Positions 3,297 to 11,870 of a DNA stretch of 64,000 nt are shown here, one piece after another. The translations under genes and the position numbers were made by a program. Position 1 is the stretch's first letter. Every line of letters begins with the position of its first letter. This DNA comes from an uncultured Armatimonadetes bacterium. GTDB lineage: Bacteria; Armatimonadota; UBA5829; DTJY01. Below the pieces are notes generated by a model. That model was not told the DNA's origin. It did no database searches and saw nothing but the letters and a program-made list of their open reading frames with translations. The stretch covers positions 4,416,001 through 4,480,000 of the forward strand of contig OY970325.1 in NCBI GenBank assembly GCA_963717145.1. The letters run 5' to 3'.

Positions 3297-5201
3297 CTAC
3301 TCCACTACCTTGAATGTCCGCGTCGCCGTCCGCGTGATGCCGTTCGACTTGGCGGTCACGACGATCTCCGGCGAATCCTTCGTGATGAAAACGAATCCGA
3401 CGAAGCAGCCGGTGCTCGTCATGTTCTCCGGGATGACGCGAGTTCCGTTGATCGTCACCTCCGCACCCGGAGTCGTCACTCCCCGCAGGTTGATGTGCGT
3501 CGGGCCCACTGGTGTGACCGAGCCGTCCGGCGGCGAAGTCTGCACGTAGAGCAGGGGTGACGCATCGAGCCCCTCGATCTCGTCCGCGATCGCCGCTCGC
3601 GTGTCGAAGAGCACCTGCGGATCGCGCGTGTGATCGTAGAACGACTGGACCACCCGGCGGCACAACTCGAGCGGACGTTGGCGCGGATCGAGCCAGCGCG
3701 CATCCTCGCCGATCCGGGTCTTCAGGTCACGCAGCCGGTTCTCGAGCGTCAGGAGGTACTCGTAGTCCTGCAGGCCGTCTCTCATCGCGCTCAGTCGAAT
3801 CGAGCCGAGGAATCCGGTGCGCCCCGGGTAGGCGACCTGCGAATCACCCGGCGGCAGGTTCCACTGGGTCGCTCCCTTCTCGGTATACGGGTCTTGGTCG
3901 GCCGCGAACCAGTTGAGCCCCCAGTGCAGGTAGCCGTCCAGCCCATACAGGTAGCTGATCCAGTGAAGCTCCCGCGCCTTGATCAGCGGCTGATCGAGGA
4001 ATCGGTTCGGATACCGCCCCTGAGGGTGGCAGCAGGTGTAGAACCAGACCTTCTCCCCCTGGCGCTTCAGCTCCTCGAAGTGCGGCCACCACAGGTTCAG
4101 ATGAGACAGCTTTGGGACGTAGATGTCGAGGTCGCCGAGGTCTTCGGTCTCGATCGCTTCGATCACCTCCACATCGGGAGCGACTTGACGCACACGCTCC
4201 AGGAGTTGGCGGTAAGACTTTTCGTGATAGATGAACGGCTCGTCGGCTAGGCTGGTCAGCACCCGTCCACGCCATCCGCGCTTCGCCACGACTTCCTGAA
4301 CCGCGGCCAGTCGTCCCATGTTGTCCTCGACCGCCTCGGTGCGGCTGTCAGGCTCGAGTTGACTCTTGGTGTGGCGACCGACGGCGGTGAACTGGACGGC
4401 CTGCAGCCCGGATTTGAAGACGACATCAGCGAACTTCTCGAAGAGCGATGTGTCCCACCGGTCCCCCTTACGCTCGATCAGCTCCCACCCGACGCGGACG
4501 TCGGTCTGGCGATGGCGTCGAACCAGTGCGCACATTCCCTCGAGGTGTTTCCAGTAGGCGTCTGTCCCCGGCTTCAGAGCCTCGAATCCGTGACCTGGGA
4601 AGTCCCACCACTGGATGACCCTCTGGTGGCGCTCCTCCGGCATGCGGAACGCACGCACGCGCACCGACATCGGCAGGCTGCACCGCCCGCCCGCGCCGGT
4701 GACCGTCAACTCGCCCCGGTACTCGCCCGGTTGAGCATCGGGGGGAATATCGACCTCGATCCACAGTGGCTGGGGGGAACCAGGCGCGACGGAGCGCTCC
4801 GAATCCTCCCAGAATGGATCCGGGATGCTGACCGGGGCGACCGCGACCAGTTCGTCTTTGGGGATCGTGGGTGAGTTGGCCGTAATCTCCATGTAACGCA
4901 CCCATTGGATCCGGACCGCGCGGGATGGAATGCTCGACTTGCCGTCCGAATGCCGGAGCGCCGAGACCCGCGCAGTCACTGTGTCAGGCGCATCAGCCGG
5001 AAGCAGGACGGCTTGCGCGCTGATCGTCTCGCCCGGCGCTCCATCCAGGCGCAATTCCTGACCGGCTGGAATCGCCGGCTGCGGGCTGAGTAGGACCTTC
5101 GCCAGTGGATGCGAGGGAATGAGTGTCATGGGTGCGCTCCAACAGGGTTGTATGAGGCCTACGGCGGCCATCAGCAGACAAATCCGAATCCTACATCTCA
5201 T
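3297..5201 (-). CDS. Secreted DUF4091-domain glycoside hydrolase (GH123-like)
   Basis: Signal peptide; DEP, WFYTCC.P, GYLHWG.N, PGD..VAYPG and SIRL..MRDGLQDYEYL motifs. Confidence 0.8.
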   Translation of the reverse strand: MRCRIRICLLMAAVGLIQPCWSAPMTLIPSHPLAKVLLSPQPAIPAGQELRLDGAPGETISAQAVLLPADAPDTVTARVSALRHSDGKSSIPSRAVRIQWVRYMEITANSPTIPKDELVAVAPVSIPDPFWEDSERSVAPGSPQPLWIEVDIPPDAQPGEYRGELTVTGAGGRCSLPMSVRVRAFRMPEERHQRVIQWWDFPGHGFEALKPGTDAYWKHLEGMCALVRRHRQTDVRVGWELIERKGDRWDTSLFEKFADVVFKSGLQAVQFTAVGRHTKSQLEPDSRTEAVEDNMGRLAAVQEVVAKRGWRGRVLTSLADEPFIYHEKSYRQLLERVRQVAPDVEVIEAIETEDLGDLDIYVPKLSHLNLWWPHFEELKRQGEKVWFYTCCHPQGRYPNRFLDQPLIKARELHWISYLYGLDGYLHWGLNWFAADQDPYTEKGATQWNLPPGDSQVAYPGRTGFLGSIRLSAMRDGLQDYEYLLTLENRLRDLKTRIGEDARWLDPRQRPLELCRRVVQSFYDHTRDPQVLFDTRAAIADEIEGLDASPLLYVQTSPPDGSVTPVGPTHINLRGVTTPGAEVTINGTRVIPENMTSTGCFVGFVFITKDSPEIVVTAKSNGITRTATRTFKVVE

Positions 5202-5318
5202 GTCCGTACCTCTGTGCTCTCAGCACAGCCGATTATACTCCGCCTGACGATGCGCGATCAACACCACATATCTGCGAGCAGGGCTGAGCGCCCTGGTTGG
5301 CGAAAGAAACAGAGGGAG

Positions 5319-6590
5319 ATGGAAATGCCTATCATCGCTGTTCTCATATTCCTTCTCGGGGGAACCGCCATGGCCCAGACGAATCCGCTCGACATGACGC
5401 CGGCGATGGCGGTCCGTGTCCAGCAGGACATCGACAAGTACCGCAAGGGCGAGGCCGTCGTCACCGTTCTCGACCGCAACGGCCGGCCGGTCGAAGGCGC
5501 GTCGATCGAGGCCCGGCAGGTCACCCACGACTTCCTCTTCGGCTGCAACATCTACATGTTCGACCATCTCGATTCGCCGGAGAAGAACGCCCGGTACAAG
5601 GAGCTGTTCAAGCGTGTAATGAACTACGCGACGCTCCCGTTCTACTGGCGGTGGACCGAGCCGGAGCAGGGGAAGCCGCAGTACGAGCGCAACCACACGA
5701 TCGCCCAGTGGTGCAGGGAGAACGGCATCACGACGAAGGGCCATCCGCTCGTCTGGGCGTGCCACGATGCGGGAGTCCCGCCCTGGCTTCCGAAGGACAA
5801 GCCGGAGGAGGTCTGGCGGCTCGTGGAGGAGCGCATCGGGGAGATCATCCCGCAGTTCAAGGGCGAGATCGGCATCTGGGACGTGGTGAACGAGTCGACC
5901 CACGGCGAGCGGTTCGGCGAGAAGTCGGTCGTCGACTTCACGGGCGAGCCGGTCAGATGGGCGAGGGAGGTCGGGTCGGATGCCTTTCTGATCGTGAACG
6001 AGTATGGCGTGATCGGCGACCGGAAGGGCCACGCGCCGTTCTACCGGCTTATCAAGCAGATGAAGGCGGATGGAGTGCCGCTCGATGCGATCGGCATCCA
6101 GACGCACATGCACGGCGGCCCGTGGTCGCTCGCGAGCATCATCGAGACGCTCGACTGGTATCAGCGGCTCGAACTCCCGATCCATCTCACCGAGGCGACT
6201 ATCCTCTCCGGCAAGGAGACCACGAATCCGGCGCAGGAGAAGCTCCAGGCGGCATACATCGAGCGGTTCTATCGGATATGTTTCAGCCATCGCGCGGTGA
6301 AGGCGATCACATGGTGGGACTTCTCGGATGCCGGCGCATGGCAGGGAGTCGCGGCGGGACTCGTGCGCAAGGATATGAGTCCGAAGCCGGCGTACCTGGT
6401 GCTCGACGATCTGATCAACAAGCAGTGGACGACCGTCTCGGAGGGCCGGACGAAGAGTGACGGCGTGTACGCATTCCGGGGCTTCGCGGGCGACTATGAC
6501 GTGACGGTGACCGCTCCCTCGGGCGAGACGTCCACCGTCCGCATCCACATCCCCGAGCGCGAGTCGGTGCAGTCGGAGATGAGGCTGTAG
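5319..6590 (+). CDS. Glycoside hydrolase family 10 (endo-1,4-beta-xylanase-like)
   Basis: KGHPLVW, WDVVNE (acid/base), DAIGIQ.H, IHLTE (nucleophile); signal peptide after ATG 5319/5325. Confidence 0.88.
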   Translation: MEMPIIAVLIFLLGGTAMAQTNPLDMTPAMAVRVQQDIDKYRKGEAVVTVLDRNGRPVEGASIEARQVTHDFLFGCNIYMFDHLDSPEKNARYKELFKRVMNYATLPFYWRWTEPEQGKPQYERNHTIAQWCRENGITTKGHPLVWACHDAGVPPWLPKDKPEEVWRLVEERIGEIIPQFKGEIGIWDVVNESTHGERFGEKSVVDFTGEPVRWAREVGSDAFLIVNEYGVIGDRKGHAPFYRLIKQMKADGVPLDAIGIQTHMHGGPWSLASIIETLDWYQRLELPIHLTEATILSGKETTNPAQEKLQAAYIERFYRICFSHRAVKAITWWDFSDAGAWQGVAAGLVRKDMSPKPAYLVLDDLINKQWTTVSEGRTKSDGVYAFRGFAGDYDVTVTAPSGETSTVRIHIPERESVQSEMRL

Positions 6591-6738
6591 GGGCGTGCCT
6601 TGTGCCGCCCGTAACCCGACCACCGTCAGTCCTGAGTGCGCCGGTGAATGACGGCGTGTAACGAAGGACGGCTCGGTGCATCAAGGCCGTCCTTCGTTAC
6701 ACGCCGTCATTCACCGGCGCACTCAGGACTGACGGTGG
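6587..6738. repeat. GTAG-REP half site followed by a 53-bp-arm perfect palindrome
   Basis: GTAGGGGCGTGCCTTGTGCCGCCC at 6587; arms 6620-6672 and 6686-6738 are exact reverse complements. Confidence 0.9.
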
Positions 6739-6773
6739 GGGCTCTGGTACTCCGGTCATGTTTCCCCGCGAAG

Positions 6774-6802
6774 TTGACACGGCTTCGGGAACCTGACATA
6801 AT
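6774..6802 (+). promoter_or_regulatory. Sigma70-type promoter of membrane-protein operon
   Basis: TTGACA-17 nt-CATAAT, 38 nt before ATG 6841. Confidence 0.7.
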
Positions 6803-6840
6803 ACCCGCACGTAATCGCTCTCGGGAGTTGCGACGTCCGT

Positions 6841-7314
6841 ATGCAGAAAGCGCATGAAATCCTCGAGGCCGGCTCGACGAAGAGTCATGCCGAACCGATC
6901 CTCACCTGGAAGGTGCATCTGCTCCGGGAGCAGCCCAGGAAGCTGCTTCTGGTGATACCCGTCGCCGCCATGAGCCTGGTCGCATCCCACGTCTTCTTCC
7001 ACACCTTCACCTTTGGCCTCATCGCCATGTTTCTCATCATGGCCTCGCTCGCCGAATACCTGTTTCCCATTCGGTTCGAGATCGACTCGCAGGGCGCATC
7101 GGCACGGACACTCACAGCGCGCACTCGGATCGAATGGAGCCGGGTGAAGAAGTATTACCTGGACGACCGAGGCATCAAGTTGAGCCCGCTCTCCAGACAG
7201 ACCCGCCTCGAAGCCTATCGAGGCGTCTACCTCATGTTCGGCGACCGCAGGGATGAGGTCATCGAGGCGGTGAAGGAGATCAGAGATGCTGTTCAGACGC
7301 GGCGCGCAGACTGA
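6841..7314 (+). CDS. Hypothetical membrane protein (2 TM + PH-like beta domain)
   Basis: Two hydrophobic helices then 'RIEWSRV..Y...RGIKLSP...RLEAYRGVYL'. Confidence 0.7.
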   Translation: MQKAHEILEAGSTKSHAEPILTWKVHLLREQPRKLLLVIPVAAMSLVASHVFFHTFTFGLIAMFLIMASLAEYLFPIRFEIDSQGASARTLTARTRIEWSRVKKYYLDDRGIKLSPLSRQTRLEAYRGVYLMFGDRRDEVIEAVKEIRDAVQTRRAD

Positions 7315-7600
7315 TCCGGAGGACTACGAGGACGACCAGCTCACTCGCGAGGAGCGCGATAAGTTGATAACCGAGCTTGCGCAGAAGGTCGTGGACAAAC
7401 GGATGGAGACGCCCGCGATCATGTTCCTCGAGATGCACAAGCCGGTGACGTTTCTCGCGAGCCAGTCAATGCTGGTGGCGAGCCCATTTCTCGTGCCGCT
7501 CTTCGGCGCGGAAGGCGTGCAGAAGTACTCCCGGCTGTTCGGATCGGTGGACAACGTGGAGCTTCTGATCGAGCGGATCGAGGAGCTTTCGGACAAGTAG
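7286..7600 (+). CDS. Conserved hypothetical protein
   Basis: AAGGAG RBS, overlaps previous gene; 'METPAIMFLEMHKP..FLASQ' motif. Confidence 0.75.
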   Translation: MLFRRGAQTDPEDYEDDQLTREERDKLITELAQKVVDKRMETPAIMFLEMHKPVTFLASQSMLVASPFLVPLFGAEGVQKYSRLFGSVDNVELLIERIEELSDK

Positions 7601-7610
7601 TGATGGAGGG

Positions 7611-7675
7611 CTGTAGGGGCGTGCCTTGTGCCGCCCGACATACGCTTGCCGGCGGCACAAGGCACGCCCCTACAG
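7611..7675. repeat. GTAG-type REP doublet
   Basis: CTGTAGGGGCGTGCCTTGTGCCGCC...GGCGGCACAAGGCACGCCCCTACAG. Confidence 0.9.
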
Positions 7676-7696
7676 CTCGTGACACTCGGGGGCACT

Positions 7697-8473
7697 GTGG
7701 AGCATGCGAACTGGCCCGTAGCGATCATGTTGGCGGTCTTCTGCTTCGTGATCCTGTACAAGATTCTGTCCGCCCGCCGGGGTAGGGACCTTTATATCCG
7801 CAAGATACCGGGGCTGAACGCCATCGACGAGGCGGTTGGCCGGGCCACCGAGATGGGCCGTCCGATCATGTTCACCCCGGGGTACGCGGTCTTGAGTCTG
7901 TCAACGCTGCAGGCGCTTTCGGTCCTGCGGCACGTGATGATCATTGCGGCGAAGTACCGGACGAGAGTGATCGTTCCAACCGCGGATTCGGTCGTCTACA
8001 CGATCGCCGAGGAGGTCAGCAAGGACGCCTGCGCCACGGCGGGCAGGCCGGAACAGCACCACCCGGAGGATATCAGGTTTCTCTCCGACGATCAGTTCGC
8101 ATATGCGGCGGGATGTGTGGGTATCCTGACCCGTGAGAAGATCGCGTCGAACTTCATGTTTGGCTCGTTCCAGGCGGAGGCGCTGATCCTGTCGGAGACA
8201 GGTCACAATGTCGGCGCGATGCAGGTCGCGAGTACGCCGGGTGTCATTCAGGTGCCGTTCTTCATCGCATCGTGCGATTACACGATGTTCGGCGATGAGT
8301 TCTATGCTGCGAGCGCATACCTGAGCCGGGAGCCGACGCTATTGGGGAGTCTCGTCGGCCAGGACTACGCGAAGTCGCTGCTGATGCTTATCATCATAGT
8401 TGGGATCATCACTGCTTCGGTGCTCGGCGCCGATCATCACGTGCTGAAATTGCTCGAGACAGGAATACCGTAG
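7697..8473 (+). CDS. DUF6754-like membrane protein, copy 1
   Basis: GTG start aligns with paralogue (VEHANW vs MEHANY); IPGLNAIDEAVGRATEMGRP and GDEFYAASAYLSREPTLLGSLVGQD motifs. Confidence 0.8.
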   Translation: MEHANWPVAIMLAVFCFVILYKILSARRGRDLYIRKIPGLNAIDEAVGRATEMGRPIMFTPGYAVLSLSTLQALSVLRHVMIIAAKYRTRVIVPTADSVVYTIAEEVSKDACATAGRPEQHHPEDIRFLSDDQFAYAAGCVGILTREKIASNFMFGSFQAEALILSETGHNVGAMQVASTPGVIQVPFFIASCDYTMFGDEFYAASAYLSREPTLLGSLVGQDYAKSLLMLIIIVGIITASVLGADHHVLKLLETGIP

Positions 8474-8561
8474 GGGCGGGCTTCTACGCCCGCCCGACAC
8501 TGTAGGGGCGATCCTTCCACGGTCGCCCGACAGGGGAGGCCGTTGAAGGCCTCCCCTACGG
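8468..8561. repeat. GTAG-type REP cluster (three units)
   Basis: GTAGGGGCGGGCTT..GCCCGCCC, GTAGGGGCGATCCTT..GGTCGCCC, GGGAGGCCGTTGAAGGCCTCCCCTAC. Confidence 0.85.
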
Positions 8562-8573
8562 ACTATAGTTGCC

Positions 8574-9353
8574 ATGGAACACGCGAACTACCCGATAGCA
8601 GTCCTGGAAGCCATCCTGGTCTTCCTCATACTGTACAAGATATTCTCCGCTCGGCGGGGCAGGCAGTTGTACATCCGCCGAATCCCGGGGCTCAACGCCA
8701 TCGACGAGGCCGTCGGTCGCGCGACCGAGATGGGCCGCCCGATCATGTTCTCTCCCGGGATCAACACCCTGAACCTGCCGACACTGCAGGCGCTCTCGAT
8801 CCTCCGGCACGTGACGGCGATTGCGGCCAAGTACCGGACGCGAGTCATCGTGCCGACCTGCGATTCGGTGGTCTACACGATCGCCGAGGAGATCAGCAAG
8901 GATGCCTACAACTCGGAGGGCAGGCCGGAGCAGTTCAATCCGGACGACATCAGGTACCTGTCGGATGACCAGTTCGCGTATGCCTCCGGGTGCGTAGGGA
9001 TACTGACCCGCGAGAAGGTCGCATCGAGCTTCATGTTCGGCGCATTCTTCGCCGAGGCGCTGATCCTTGCGGAGACCGGTCACAACGTCGGCGCGATGCA
9101 GGTTGCCGGCACGCCGAGTACGACGCAGATTCCGTTTTTCATCACATCGTGCGATTACACGATCATCGGCGATGAGTTCTACGCCGCGAGCGCCTACCTG
9201 AGCCGGGAGCCGACGCTTCTCGGAAGCCTCGTGGGCCAGGATTACGCAAAGGCGGTGTTGATCATCGTGGTCTTGCTGGGCATTGTGACCGCCTCGATTC
9301 CATGGGTGAGTCATCAGTTCCCGCATCTGCTTACGCTGTTCAGCGGATCTTGA
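8574..9353 (+). CDS. DUF6754-like membrane protein, copy 2
   Basis: Colinear, highly similar paralogue of 7697-8473. Confidence 0.82.
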   Translation: MEHANYPIAVLEAILVFLILYKIFSARRGRQLYIRRIPGLNAIDEAVGRATEMGRPIMFSPGINTLNLPTLQALSILRHVTAIAAKYRTRVIVPTCDSVVYTIAEEISKDAYNSEGRPEQFNPDDIRYLSDDQFAYASGCVGILTREKVASSFMFGAFFAEALILAETGHNVGAMQVAGTPSTTQIPFFITSCDYTIIGDEFYAASAYLSREPTLLGSLVGQDYAKAVLIIVVLLGIVTASIPWVSHQFPHLLTLFSGS

Positions 9354-9367
9354 CATGCGTGACTTCG

Positions 9368-9452
9368 TAACGACCTGTTGGGGATGGAGTTGGACTCCAT
9401 CCCCACTAGTCCCTGGGGGATGGAGTCCAACTCCATCCCCAACGGGTCGTTA
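9368..9452. repeat. Palindromic doublet, GGGGA(T/G)GGAGT family
   Basis: GTTGGGGATGGAGTTGGACTCCATCCCC...GGGGATGGAGTCCAACTCCATCCCCAAC. Confidence 0.85.
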
Positions 9453-9481
9453 GGATGCCGGGGGCGTTTTCGGAGGACTAG

Positions 9482-10297
9482 TTGTTTACACAATGGGTGG
9501 TGAAACCAGGCGCGCCCCAGTACTTGTGGCTGCTCGCCGTGCTGGGCGATTTCCTGATATTGGGCGGTGCGCTCTTCTTCCTGCTGAGGATGGTCCCGAG
9601 CAGGTTCAGGAAGACGCTCGTCGCCATAGTCACGTTCGCCGCGGGACTGATCTACTCCGTCGAGTTCTTCGTGCCGGTGCCTGCGGGCCGGGACGGCAAC
9701 TTCCTGACCAACTTCGCGCAGAAGACGGTCACGGACGTCGTGCTCGTGCTTTCGACATTCGCGCTCGGCCTCGGGATATACAGCCTGCTCCGATTCCACG
9801 GGCGCATTCTGGCTCGGCGGCGACCGGGATGGCACAACAGCTTCGCGCTGTACGTCGCCTTTTTCGCCATGCTGCTCACGGGCTTCTGGACTATGATGAG
9901 CAAGGCTCCTGCCGCCGAGAATACGTTCGATGCGCTCTTCCGCGGCATGGTCGCGGCCCCCGGCGCGACGATGTTCTCCATAATCGCATTCTATATCGTC
10001 TCTGCAGCCTACAGAGCCTTCCGCATCAGGTCCGCTGAGGCGACCCTCATGCTCGCGGCGGCGTTCGTAGTCATGCTCGGAAGCGTCCCGGTCGGCGAGT
10101 ATCTGACGAGCGGACTCCCGGCGACGGGCTTCTGGAGCAACCTCCGGATGGAGAACGTCAACCTCTGGATACTGAAGGAACCGAACATGGCGGCATGGCG
10201 CGGGATCTCCTTCGGCGTCGAGATCGGCGCGCTGGCGATGGCACTGCGCACCTGGTTGAGCCTCGAGCGGGGCAGTTTCTTCGAGAGAGAGTTGTAA
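9482..10297 (+). CDS. Multi-pass membrane protein of the DUF6754 cluster
   Basis: GGAGG RBS and TTG start; about 7 hydrophobic segments; 'ATMFSIIAFYIVSAAYRAFRIRS.EA' motif. Confidence 0.8.
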   Translation: MFTQWVVKPGAPQYLWLLAVLGDFLILGGALFFLLRMVPSRFRKTLVAIVTFAAGLIYSVEFFVPVPAGRDGNFLTNFAQKTVTDVVLVLSTFALGLGIYSLLRFHGRILARRRPGWHNSFALYVAFFAMLLTGFWTMMSKAPAAENTFDALFRGMVAAPGATMFSIIAFYIVSAAYRAFRIRSAEATLMLAAAFVVMLGSVPVGEYLTSGLPATGFWSNLRMENVNLWILKEPNMAAWRGISFGVEIGALAMALRTWLSLERGSFFEREL

Positions 10298-10298
10298 C

Positions 10299-11181
10299 GT
10301 GGAAAGACAGAACCGATCTACAACTGACCGCATCCTTACGGCCTTCGAGAGCCTCCAGCACATCGACCGGCGGATCATGTATGCCCTCCTGGCCATCGTT
10401 GTCGCTATTCCGCTGATTCCGGCACTAAACATAAGGCAGCCGCTCGTGGTCACATGGCCCGTCAAGGGCGCATACGACACGATCGAGAAGATGCCCGCCG
10501 ACAAGCTGGCGATCATCGACATACTCTGGGATTCCGGCACCATCGCCGAGAGCCGCCCGCAGACCGAGGCGATCATACGCCACCTCATGATCCGGAACAA
10601 GAAGTTCGCCATCGTCGCCTTCATGCCTCAGGGGAACAAACTCGCATACGACTCGGCCAAGAAGATCGGCAAGGAACTCGGCAAGGAGTACGGCAAGGAT
10701 TGGATCCACTGGGGATACAGGCCCGGCGGCGCGATGATCCAGTTCATGATGGGCATTGGACGAGACATCCCCGGCACAGTCAAGTCCGACATCGAGGGCA
10801 AGCCGGTCACGTCCTACCCGATCATGCAGGGCGTCAAGAGCATCAAGAACGGCGACGTAGGCGCGATAGTGGAGGTTACTCCTTCCGGCACTCTGGACTA
10901 CTGGATCGCGTTCGTCTACGGTCCGTATCGCACGCCGATCATCTACTGCCCGACCGCGGTGATGGCGCACGGAGGGGTACAACCCGCTCGACGCCGGTCA
11001 GATCACGGGCATGCTGACCGGCATGAAGGGTGCGGCCGAGTACGAGTCGCTACTCGGGCGCAGGGACTTCGCCACTCGGGCGACCGGCTCCTTGTCCACG
11101 TCTCATCTACTGATTATAGTCTTGATTATCATCGGCAACATCGGGTACATCAGTTCCCGACGCCGACGAAGCGAAGGTTAA
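10299..11181 (+). CDS. Membrane-anchored protein of the DUF6754 cluster (apparent +1 frameshift near 10969)
   Basis: After PTAVMA the +1 frame reads PEGYNPLDAGQITGMLTGMKGAAEYESLLG...SHLLIIVLIIIGNIGY...SEG* (TAA 11179-11181); the ORF track fuses it with the next gene. Confidence 0.78.
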
Positions 11182-11186
11182 CCAGT

Positions 11187-11870
11187 ATGCACACACTGAT
11201 GTCATGGCTGTCGAACAGCAGCATAACGGACGGCATAGCGCTCTGGCTCGCGGTGGGCGCGACGCTCGGGATCTACTCGATCCTGTATAAGGAGAACCCC
11301 GTCTACCGCCTCGTGGAGCATATCTACATCGGCGCGGCGGCCGGCTACTACTCCTACATCGGCTGGGCTCAGACGCTCAAGCCGCTGTGGTGGGATCGCA
11401 TCACGGCCGGACAGTGGCCCTGGATATTCGCCCTCATCGGCGGCTCGATGTTCTACTTCATCTACAGCCGGCGTCACGTATGGGTCAGCCGTATCATCTT
11501 CGGCGCGCTGCTCGGACTCGTTTCCGGCGCTGCCTTCAAGGGATTCGCGGGCCTGAACGTCGACCGGATCGAGGCGTCGTTCAAGCCGCTCTGGGGCTTG
11601 GGTGTGGAGTGGCCCCAAAGAATCAGCAACATCCTGGCGATGATCATCCTGTTGACCGTGATGATGTACTTCTTCTTCTCGTTCGAACACAAGACCCGCC
11701 TTCACCGAGCGCCGGCCAATCTGGGGCGCTGGTTCCTCATGTTCGCCTTCGGAGCGATGTTCGGCTCCACGGTCATGGCGCGCATGTCGCTTCTCATAGG
11801 CAGAGTCTTCTTTCTCATCTCCGAGTGGTACCCCGCCCTTCGTCACGTCTTCATGCGCATCGTGTACTAG
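11187..11870 (+). CDS. Multi-pass membrane protein of the DUF6754 cluster
   Basis: MHTLMSW...; YSILYKENPVYRLVEHIYIG and GRWFLMFAFGAMFGSTVMARMSLLIGR motifs. Confidence 0.8.
   Translation: MHTLMSWLSNSSITDGIALWLAVGATLGIYSILYKENPVYRLVEHIYIGAAAGYYSYIGWAQTLKPLWWDRITAGQWPWIFALIGGSMFYFIYSRRHVWVSRIIFGALLGLVSGAAFKGFAGLNVDRIEASFKPLWGLGVEWPQRISNILAMIILLTVMMYFFFSFEHKTRLHRAPANLGRWFLMFAFGAMFGSTVMARMSLLIGRVFFLISEWYPALRHVFMRIVY

Follow-up and report, generated by a model that had tools for sequence, protein, structure and literature searches.

A DUF6754 membrane gene cluster of Armatimonadota appears to be part of a conserved eight-family system with a GlmL-type ATPase

Introduction

FtsEX, LolCDE, MacAB, and LptB2FGC are ATP-driven machines of the bacterial envelope that transmit force to periplasmic domains. 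To our knowledge, ATP used through the ASKHA (actin/Hsp70/sugar-kinase) fold is not known as an energy source for membrane complexes. The alpha subunit of diol dehydratase reactivase combines an ASKHA domain with a swivel domain. GlmL has been called a chaperone that reactivates glutamate mutase in one account (PMC4682846). Here we analyze a 64,000-nucleotide stretch of DNA from an uncultured Armatimonadetes bacterium, referred to throughout as the window (contig OY970325.1; G000:C1:4416001-4480000, G000 being a single-contig genome of 5,366,867 bases), and within it a cluster of seven membrane-system genes, g1 to g7, two of which, g3 and g4, belong to the family DUF6754. We describe the conservation of this cluster, its association with a GlmL-family ATPase encoded elsewhere in the genome, and its relation to the systems named above.

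Conservation of the membrane gene cluster

Our comparisons show that the seven genes represent six families, with DUF6754 occurring twice, and that these appear, from their sequences, to be the membrane part of a conserved eight-family system whose other two parts are cytoplasmic. The family PF20539 (DUF6754) is present in all 41 genomes of our sample of the Armatimonadota class (28 of 28 genera, the host genome G000 included) and in none of 14 control genomes. Among the loci of the relatives, 19 of 20 have the order DUF6754-g5-g6-g7, and 17 of 20 have all six families. A wider set, consisting of the best 80 of 608 relatives (one genome per species) and leaning to Armatimonadota, holds the four core genes in 71 loci, in 70 of which order and strand are the same; seven of the nine incomplete loci end at a contig edge. 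The pair g1-g2 lies directly upstream of DUF6754 in 47 of the 69 loci that leave room for it, and g2 is co-conserved with g1 across loci. By the names of their metagenome-assembled genomes (MAGs), these wider loci come from WOR-3, Fermentibacteria, Zixibacteria, Latescibacterota, and Planctomycetota, together with single Bacillota and Actinomycetota bins, and the identity of DUF6754 to the window copies across these groups is 50-58%. Cultured hosts are found as well, namely Chthonomonas calidirosea and relatives of Fimbriimonas, Armatimonas, and Capsulimonadaceae.

A first-pass annotation of the window had described one promoter and seven co-directional genes of an uncharacterized multi-subunit membrane system. 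We find all seven on the + strand behind one strong promoter-like site (Table 1), and the neighborhood survey of DUF6754 that the annotation had proposed, in which the core genes prove co-conserved, agrees with the wider description; no solved structure or curated family accounts for the system. The annotation had also stated that the four-gene core recurs in bacteria and archaea; the bacterial part of this statement holds, and none of the 80 loci fetched is archaeal.

The two DUF6754 copies match PF20539 with 321 bits for g3 (model positions 8-248 of 257) and 342.1 bits for g4 (11-250 of 257), against a cut-off of 27. The products of g1, g2, g5, g6, and g7 have no Pfam or NCBIfam family match. 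Hydropathy agrees with the transmembrane (TM) layout that had been claimed for the subunits, including one N-terminal and one C-terminal hydrophobic segment each in g3, g4, and g6; g2, described there as soluble, has no segment above threshold (peak 1.53, threshold 1.6). The earlier statement that Fe-S and heme motifs are lacking is likewise borne out, as neither CxxC nor CxxCH occurs in the seven products; the Walker A motif (G....GK[ST]) is absent from them too, and g1, g2, g5, and g7 contain no cysteine at all. The soluble domain of g1 has a weak likeness to a bacterial PH domain (PF10756, bPH_6; E 0.041, 14.3 bits, under the cut-off of 22). Many conserved charged residues lie inside the hydrophobic segments of g5 and g7.

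Searches with family profiles returned little that was familiar. Against the sequences of the Protein Data Bank (PDB), the profiles of DUF6754, g5, g6, g7, and the two cytoplasmic proteins described below found nothing significant, the best match being RraA (E 0.068, for the second cytoplasmic protein). Pfam scans of all members of the g5, g6, and g7 alignments (74, 83, and 81 sequences; E <= 1) gave no consistent family; the most widely shared one reaches at most 15 of the 74 g5 members and at most 8 of the 81 g7 members, all at weak E-values. Look-ups of Atlas clusters met only unnamed or weakly named clusters, those nearest to g5 being unnamed, and for neither of the two query sequences does the Atlas contain a structural model. 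Profile comparison of g5 with g7 found no homology, and the co-linear hhalign alignments of DUF6754 with g6 are not significant (probability 4.1% and 3.3%, E 0.01 and 0.013). The g6 family itself counts at least 5406 cluster representatives at E <= 0.001 in a profile search of 1.84 billion representatives. From the charge counts, its orientation is opposite to that of DUF6754, with both termini inside, which places its soluble domain in the periplasm. In the homologs P0436, P0395, P0434, P0458, and P0469, the periplasmic domain carries large insertions, one of them CARDB-like, or a tandem repeat of the domain; the insertions suggest a variable surface at two fixed points, near profile positions 113 and 238. 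A fusion of g6 and g7 also occurs, in the database protein P0463 (591 amino acids).

A GlmL-family ATPase and its swivel-domain partner

The first of the two cytoplasmic proteins is an ATPase of about 616 amino acids with the ASKHA fold, encoded in the host's own genome at L116:4122-5972. It belongs to the GlmL family and matches PF13941 with 426.9 bits (cut-off 27) over model positions 1-450 of 450; the Pfam name of this family, MutL, denotes the GlmL family of glutamate mutase and not the MutL of mismatch repair. The protein can be aligned over the full length of the GlmL and Or-4 models, carries a C-terminal extension of about 110 amino acids, and stays under the respective NCBIfam cut-offs (GlmL, 228.5 versus 475; Or-4, 210.2 versus 600; TIGR01319, 176.2 versus 204.05). 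On these scores we class it as a separate branch and not as a GlmL equivalog.

In the host genome, the ATPase and its partner form a pair some 3.8 Mb away from the window, at G000:C1:588.1-592.0 kb, with one intact copy of each (C1:588205-589626 and 590900-591988). The neighbors of the ATPase there are GH2-like, F5/8-type-C, HTH, PIN, partner, and methyltransferase genes, with no glutamate mutase gene nearby. An HTH_17 antitoxin-like gene and a PIN-domain gene split the pair at L116:6056-6900 (G000:C1 ~590.05-590.9 kb).

In other phyla the two genes are adjacent or overlapping, and in Planctomycetota, Fermentibacteria-like, and Zixibacteria-like genomes they lie inside or beside the operon. 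The loci L099 (Fermentibacteria) and L077 (uncultured, non-Armatimonadota) encode a PF13941 protein of about 625 amino acids and a protein of about 375 amino acids between g2 and DUF6754, and PF13941 and the partner also adjoin the core in L069, L096, and L105. The full order g1-g2-ATPase-partner-DUF6754-g5-g6-g7 is found in L126 and L130, both from Planctomycetota, and L129 shows it from g2 on, with no match to g1. An ATPase-partner fusion of 942 amino acids directly follows g7 in L138 (G045), and in the genome G030 the partner stands beside a second, divergent core cluster.

The association also holds genome by genome. A count over 151 evenly sampled Planctomycetota genomes finds DUF6754 in 42 of them, compared with 40 that have the partner and 43 that have the ATPase. 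DUF6754 and the partner occur together in 39 genomes, DUF6754 without the partner in three, the partner without DUF6754 in one, and neither in 108; for DUF6754 and the ATPase the corresponding numbers are 40, two, three, and 106. In at least 20 of the 39 genomes that share both, the partner lies no more than 2 kb upstream of DUF6754, an adjacency that lends independent weight beyond co-occurrence. Of the 41 Armatimonadota relatives, 40 have the partner, among them all 36 genomes of good quality, and with few exceptions it is located at a long distance from the membrane genes. It is also found in five of five DUF6754-bearing genomes of other phyla, these five being the whole of the count beyond Planctomycetota and Armatimonadota.

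The first-pass annotation had reported no ATPase and had proposed a secondary transporter. The former is correct for the window locus and does not extend to the system, in which an ASKHA ATPase stands in the operon elsewhere (L077, L099, L126, L129, and L130), is fused in L138, accompanies DUF6754 in 40 of 42 genomes, and is encoded at a remote site in the host itself. An ATPase that is part of the operon in other phyla, and that is found genome by genome along with DUF6754, means that the system cannot be called ATPase-free, and the proposal of a secondary transporter is left unsupported.

The partner is a cytoplasmic protein of 372 amino acids, modeled with a predicted local distance difference test score (pLDDT) of 86.3, in which three domains can be told apart: a barrel-sandwich hybrid, a swivelling beta/beta/alpha domain, and a KOW-like barrel. 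The barrel-sandwich domain superposes on that of NqrA (4u9o_A; Z 7.7, root-mean-square deviation (rmsd) 2.0, 64 aligned residues) and on RnfC (8ahx_C; Z 7.7), and a Pfam match to RnfC_N stays under threshold (E 0.0029). The swivel domain matches enzyme I of the phosphotransferase system (PTS; 2wqd_A; Z 8.8, rmsd 3.1, 110 aligned), RraA (3c8o_A; Z 8.3), and rifampin phosphotransferase (5hv1_A; Z 8.1; Foldseek probability 0.99 for 5fbt), and the C-terminal domain matches KOW domains at Z ~8 and rmsd 1.2-1.5. No histidine or cysteine is invariant among 60 partner sequences, and the position in question in the motif AITG(H/Q/E)E varies.

In several ATPase matches from Planctomycetota, such as those in G095:C12, G106:C5, G076:C1, and G147:C20, alignments that are otherwise full-length and score very high are interrupted by one to three in-frame stops (TAA or TGA). 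Assembly errors, pseudogenes, and recoding are the candidate explanations.

Topology and duplication of DUF6754

An AlphaFold2 model of g4 (mean pLDDT 65.2) contains a confident beta-alpha-beta domain at residues 40-166. Fold searches with it gave generic Rossmann-like matches only (best Foldseek E 5.3e-3; VIA Z 9.5, rmsd 3.1, 127 aligned); the list is topped by alcohol dehydrogenase and USP domains, and no cobalamin-binding or flavodoxin domain stands out. The cobalamin-binding motif DxHxxG is not seen, by reading, in the consensus of 87 DUF6754 sequences. The charge counts give no lysine or arginine before the first TM segment and five to six after it (six in g4), a bias that places the domain in the cytoplasm. 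We infer that the Rossmann-like domain of DUF6754 lies in the cytoplasm, that a membrane helix flanks it on either side, and that both ends of the protein are outside. In other phyla, DUF6754 proteins begin, in our reading of the sequences, with a signal peptide and an FN3-like domain, and among the 120 longer homologs listed are carriers of PQQ-type propeller (21), PKD (8), FN3 (6), OmpA (1), RHS (1), and WD40 (1) domains, all of which suit extracytoplasmic termini. Some Planctomycetota DUF6754 proteins have N-terminal extensions of 650-1100 amino acids with no Pfam domain (L125:2728-6792; L126:7397-11245, - strand; L127:5887-8625); that of L127 is rich in Lys, Glu, and Ala and has a coiled-coil-like look.

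The two copies in the window are 74% identical. The first-pass annotation had called them DUF6754-like paralogs with local patches of difference, and this description agrees with their PF20539 matches and with the location of the quoted patches at residues 61-68, 155-161, and 179-185. Each copy has orthologs at 79-85% identity, in the same order, in two other genera of the family (G001 and G006), so the duplication predates those genera and is confined to a subclade. Of the two, it is g4 that mostly retains the family consensus at the 15 type-specific positions, while g3 departs from it even at near-invariant sites (Y112C, F121H, S138A, I198F, and F159Q in g4 numbering). On this pattern we regard the upstream copy, g3, as derived and g4 as canonical, with the duplication specific to the lineage. 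On the predicted sheet, the type-specific differences map to the C-terminal edge, in the loops that follow strands 1 and 4.

The host genome has no DUF6754 gene beyond these two. An independent duplication of DUF6754 is present in L023, from another lineage, and in two Planctomycetota genomes the whole four-gene core is duplicated in tandem (L130:4224-11581 and L131:4603-11115), in L130 together with genes for g1, g2, the ATPase, and the partner that are each present once. Judged from gene content, exchangeable specificity subunits would fit both forms of duplication, that of DUF6754 only (here, in G001, and in G006) and that of the whole core beside single-copy genes. The duplications also fit alternative membrane modules that share one cytoplasmic module, an arrangement that does not imply specificity, and the second DUF6754 copy may be part of an alternative form of the machine.

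Proposed mechanism and alternatives

The reading that we favor, tentatively, is that of an ATP-driven inner-membrane machine that would couple a cytoplasmic ATPase module to extracytoplasmic domains, rather than a secondary transporter. In such a machine, the ATPase and its swivel-domain partner would cycle with nucleotide on the cytoplasmic domain of DUF6754. Movement of this domain, clamped by two helices, could then be relayed through a helix bundle of g5 and g7. The relay would end at the periplasmic g6 domain and the DUF6754 ectodomains, which might move or remodel a substrate in the envelope.

Several points weigh against this proposal. GlmL-type proteins are known as maintenance chaperones and not as motors. 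The co-occurrence counts given above were made within one phylum, among MAGs and relatives that are not independent, and do not amount to a statistical test. A divergent paralogous ATPase-partner pair occurs away from DUF6754 in L133-L137 (G041:C95, G071:C4, G122:C19, G147:C18, and G044:C4), with profile E-values of ~1e-180 to 1e-204 and 1e-46 to 1e-57 and with neighbors that are not conserved (M1 peptidase, radical SAM, GT2, and acyl-CoA dehydrogenases); since it stands alone, an ATPase-partner pair can work in other contexts. The Z values of the partner (7.7-8.8) lie in a common range and so name folds, not functions, and a phosphoryl relay as in phosphoenolpyruvate (PEP)-utilizing enzymes is unlikely, since neither His nor Cys is invariant in the partner. 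For DUF6754 the model is mediocre, and its most conserved stretch, residues 167-222, is unmodeled. Finally, L065 and L112 have room for the core and yet show DUF6754 without g5-g7, as judged by profiles.

A complex of DUF6754, g5, g6, and g7, trimmed to 996 residues and with the G001 ortholog in place of the frameshifted g6 of the window, was predicted with scores of 0.59, 0.55, and 0.60. Controls in which DUF6754 was replaced scored 0.00 and 0.00 and one in which g6 was replaced scored 0.54, so that the prediction gives no verdict and is used neither for nor against binding.

Among the alternatives, we give the best, though still a low, chance to a membrane complex, ion-translocating or enzymatic, of the kind represented by Nqr/Rnf, the Mtr methyltransferase, or the Na+-decarboxylases. 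A cofactor would sit on the DUF6754 domain, and the role of the GlmL-like ATPase and the partner would be limited to loading or exchanging it; cobalamin enzymes are served in this way by GlmL and diol-dehydratase reactivase. The matches of the ATPase to the GlmL and ornithine Or-4 models point this way, as do the resemblance of the first domain of the partner to the N-terminal domain of NqrA/RnfC and a subunit pattern that, in our comparison, recalls Nqr/Rnf (peripheral cytoplasmic, 6-TM, and TM plus periplasmic domain). GlmL is itself described as a reactivating chaperone of glutamate mutase (PMC4682846). Against a cofactor-bearing complex, however, the seven proteins have no Cys clusters or heme motifs, the DUF6754 consensus shows, by reading, no DxHxxG and its fold matches no standout cobalamin or flavodoxin relative, the alignments contain no Pfam match to Nqr, Rnf, Mtr, or decarboxylase families, and the ATPase stays below the GlmL and Or-4 cut-offs. 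Somewhat less probable still is a scaffold or morphogenetic complex in which the DUF6754 and g6 ectodomains would hold or position envelope structures such as peptidoglycan, the outer membrane, or surface proteins, with the ASKHA protein regulating or polymerizing like FtsA, MreB, or PilM. A scaffold would suit the binding type of the domains fused to DUF6754 (FN3, PKD, beta-propellers, and one OmpA-like peptidoglycan-binding domain), the long coiled-coil-like extension in L127, the outer-membrane protein genes after g7 in L077, L099, L078, and L095, the universal, single-copy presence of the system in the class, and its very high conservation between phyla (50-58% identity). The ATPase, however, comes from the hydantoinase/GlmL branch and not from the FtsA, MreB, or PilM families, the outer-membrane neighbors are limited to single lineages, and the conserved charged residues in the g5 and g7 segments suit transport or ion coupling better.

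The original proposal of an ATPase-independent secondary transporter or receptor, with the DUF6754 paralogs as exchangeable specificity subunits, now seems to us quite unlikely. It draws on the lack of an ATPase in the window operon, on the unlinked position of the ATPase and partner in most Armatimonadota, and on the duplication here of DUF6754 alone, with type-specific differences in the loops after strands 1 and 4. The placement of the ATPase and partner within the operon in other phyla, their fusion directly after g7 in L138, their nearly one-to-one occurrence with DUF6754, and the absence of carrier-family matches from the Pfam scans of g5, g6, and g7 all argue the other way; moreover, the variable domain of DUF6754 is placed in the cytoplasm by its charge bias and ectodomain fusions, which is the wrong side for recognizing an external substrate. 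We consider it most improbable of all that two separate systems, the membrane cluster and the ATPase-partner pair, share a neighborhood and a phyletic pattern by common descent only. Such a coincidence would accommodate the shared ancestry within the one phylum in which co-occurrence was measured, the paralogous pair that stands alone in L133-L137, and the unlinked position of the two sets in Armatimonadota. It fits poorly with adjacency in the same gene order in at least four phylum-level groups, with the placement of the pair between g2 and DUF6754, within the operon, with the partner beside the second, divergent core cluster of G030, and with the fused form directly after g7.

Comparison with described systems

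The likeness to the accessory proteins GlmL (Pfam MutL) and Or-4 rests in the remote ATPase, with its high PF13941 score and end-to-end model alignment, and in its likely client here, the DUF6754 domain, which is Rossmann-like as cobalamin-binding domains are. The present system differs in its sub-cut-off scores, the ~110-residue C-terminal extension, and the lack of a nearby mutase gene, and no cobalamin motif was seen in it; whereas the gene for GlmL sits between or beside those of the glutamate mutase GlmS and GlmE, the neighbors here are, in other phyla, g2 and the partner. The combination of an ASKHA ATPase with a swivelling domain recalls the alpha subunit of the reactivases DdrAB and GdrAB. 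Here, however, the swivel domain belongs to a separate protein, fused only in L138, and the genomic partners are six membrane proteins.

The system resembles Na+-NQR and Rnf in its peripheral cytoplasmic, polytopic, and periplasmic-domain subunits. Of the partner, only the barrel-sandwich domain matches NqrA and RnfC, where 64 residues can be superposed on the N-terminal domain of each (Z 7.5-7.7, rmsd 2.0-2.5). The system has no flavin, Fe-S, or Cys motifs and does have an ASKHA ATPase, which is absent from Nqr and Rnf. Homologs of NqrB/D/E and RnfD/A/E were not matched by Pfam in any of the 74 g5, 83 g6, and 81 g7 family members. The envelope machines driven by ATP-binding cassette (ABC) proteins are similar by functional analogy, in that a cytoplasmic ATPase module, membrane subunits, and periplasmic domains act in the envelope; pumps of the MacAB type also include a protein with a barrel-sandwich hybrid domain, which in the present system is cytoplasmic. 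In contrast to these machines, the ATPase here has the ASKHA fold, the seven products lack Walker A, Pfam scans of the operon show no ABC domain, and no sequence or fold relation to the membrane domains of ABC transporters was found. The middle domain of the partner matches the swivel domains of PTS enzyme I and PEP-utilizing enzymes (Z 8.8 and 8.1), but the partner lacks an invariant phospho-accepting His in 60 sequences, and RraA and the small subunit of aconitase X, neither of which is a phosphocarrier, match its swivel domain equally well.

The system thus fails a defining feature of each known class with which we compared it. No described system matches, with the caution that a relation to a known class might yet emerge from structures of g5 and g7. 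Literature searches on the family names DUF6754, PF20539, and PF13941, or on GlmL with ASKHA, found nothing. As a broader and more doubtful proposal than the machine itself, the eight families could constitute an undescribed class of envelope machine, one that uses a GlmL-type ASKHA ATPase and a swivel-domain adaptor in place of a P-loop ATPase or an ion gradient. It would serve a housekeeping envelope task in Armatimonadota, shared with many Planctomycetota and with WOR-3, Fermentibacteria, Zixibacteria, Latescibacteria, Cloacimonadota, and Eremiobacterota, and the duplicated DUF6754 genes and cores would be alternative versions sharing one ATPase module.

The system is present in every sampled genome of the Armatimonadota class, and its identity of 50-58% between phyla is usual for core machinery. 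For seven of the eight families there is neither a function nor a curated family, and the remaining one, the ATPase, is a GlmL relative that stays under threshold; the link between the ATPase and its partner and the cluster turns a set of hypothetical membrane proteins into a defined eight-part assembly. If the assembly is driven by its ASKHA protein, a new energy source for membrane complexes would be suggested, and GlmL-like proteins would gain a context outside cobalamin enzymes. The cultured hosts among the loci make knock-down, pull-down, and cryo-EM experiments feasible.

The interrupted g6 frame

The first-pass annotation had treated g6 as one gene with a TM-soluble-TM product, and this does not hold for the assembly as it stands. 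Alignment of the DNA with that of three relatives reveals one extra base in a proline codon near position 10969, so that g6 runs in frame 0 to ~10967 and in frame +1 from ~10972 to a stop at 11181. The relatives encode PTAVMAPEGYNPLDAGQ in a single frame, which in the window is split into PTAVMAHGG in frame 0 and GYNPLDAGQ in frame +1, and all 19 orthologs extracted are single open reading frames (ORFs) of 276-305 amino acids. Frame 0 is open by chance to the stop of g7. As a result, the mechanical ORF at 10299-11870 (523 amino acids) joins the N-terminal part of g6, 70 out-of-frame residues, and g7, and a 56-residue ORF lies in another frame at 11011-11181. Contigs from four of four public runs (metagenome; two samples, 90-99% alike) lack one base at 10969 or 10971. 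Either an error of the assembly or a mutation of very recent date probably explains the frameshift; since none of the four runs represents the same strain, the two explanations weigh equally. If the extra base is real, the product would consist of the N-terminal two-thirds of g6, 70 unrelated residues, and g7.

Locus layout and neighboring genes

The features of the locus are collected in Table 1. Between 6400 and 12300, promoter-like sites number only two, versus a mean of 1.6 in shuffled sequences at the laxer threshold.

Table 1. Positions of the genes, candidate promoter, and repeats in the window
Feature	Position	Strand	Description
Candidate promoter	6774..6802	+	TTGACA-17-CATAAT with TG extension; 11/12 matches to a sigma-70-like consensus
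g1	6841..7314	+	hydrophobic hairpin (two adjacent segments), then soluble domain
g2	7286..7600	+	104 amino acids; acidic N-terminal part, moderately hydrophobic stretch 54-72
g3, DUF6754 paralog 1	7697..8473	+	likely GTG start at 7697, set by family alignment; mechanical ORF from 7628
g4, DUF6754 paralog 2	8574..9353	+	predicted N-out TM, cytoplasmic Rossmann-like domain, C-terminal TM
g5	9482..10297	+	polytopic; six strong and one weaker hydrophobic segment; no Cys
g6	10299..11181	+	predicted N-in TM, periplasmic alpha/beta domain, C-in TM; frame broken at ~10969
g7	11187..11870	+	polytopic; 5-6 hydrophobic segments; no Cys
REP-like inverted repeat	7613..7636 and 7650..7673	+ and -	two 24-mers 13 nucleotides apart, inside the operon between g2 and g3
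REP-like repeat copy	6587..6610	+	abuts a long palindrome (~6614-6740), downstream of the GH10 gene

The GC-rich repeat of 23/24 bases, which begins GTAGGGGCG, has three copies in the window and none in shuffled sequences. Genome-wide, its 23-mer has 159 occurrences (78 forward, 81 reverse), against none for the reversed control. The genomic copies are mostly inverted pairs 13-40 nucleotides apart and have the look of a REP-like element family.

Apart from the ATPase-partner pair, clustering of the flanking genes over the 80 loci yields only lineage-specific neighbors. In four loci from outside Armatimonadota, outer-membrane protein genes stand behind g7: in L077 and L099, it is directly followed by TonB-dependent-receptor-like genes with a CarboxypepD_reg domain (L077:9126-11885 and L099:9232-11925), and Wzi-like genes follow it in L078 (8955-10553, directly) and L095 (9476-10999, there beyond a 191-residue ORF); these outer-membrane genes may be a hint of an envelope role or may stand there by chance. 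Upstream of the cluster in the window, from 3297 to 6590, lie a GH123 gene on the - strand and a GH10 gene with a CarboxypepD_reg domain. Downstream, between 12073 and 14606, are a DUF5335 gene, a gene for an acidic product of 147 amino acids, a RimK-like ATP-grasp gene, and a gene for a KGG-repeat stress protein. The DUF5335 gene and the acidic gene also follow g7 in L018, L026, L028, and L029 of the same family, and DUF5335 alone does so in L030.

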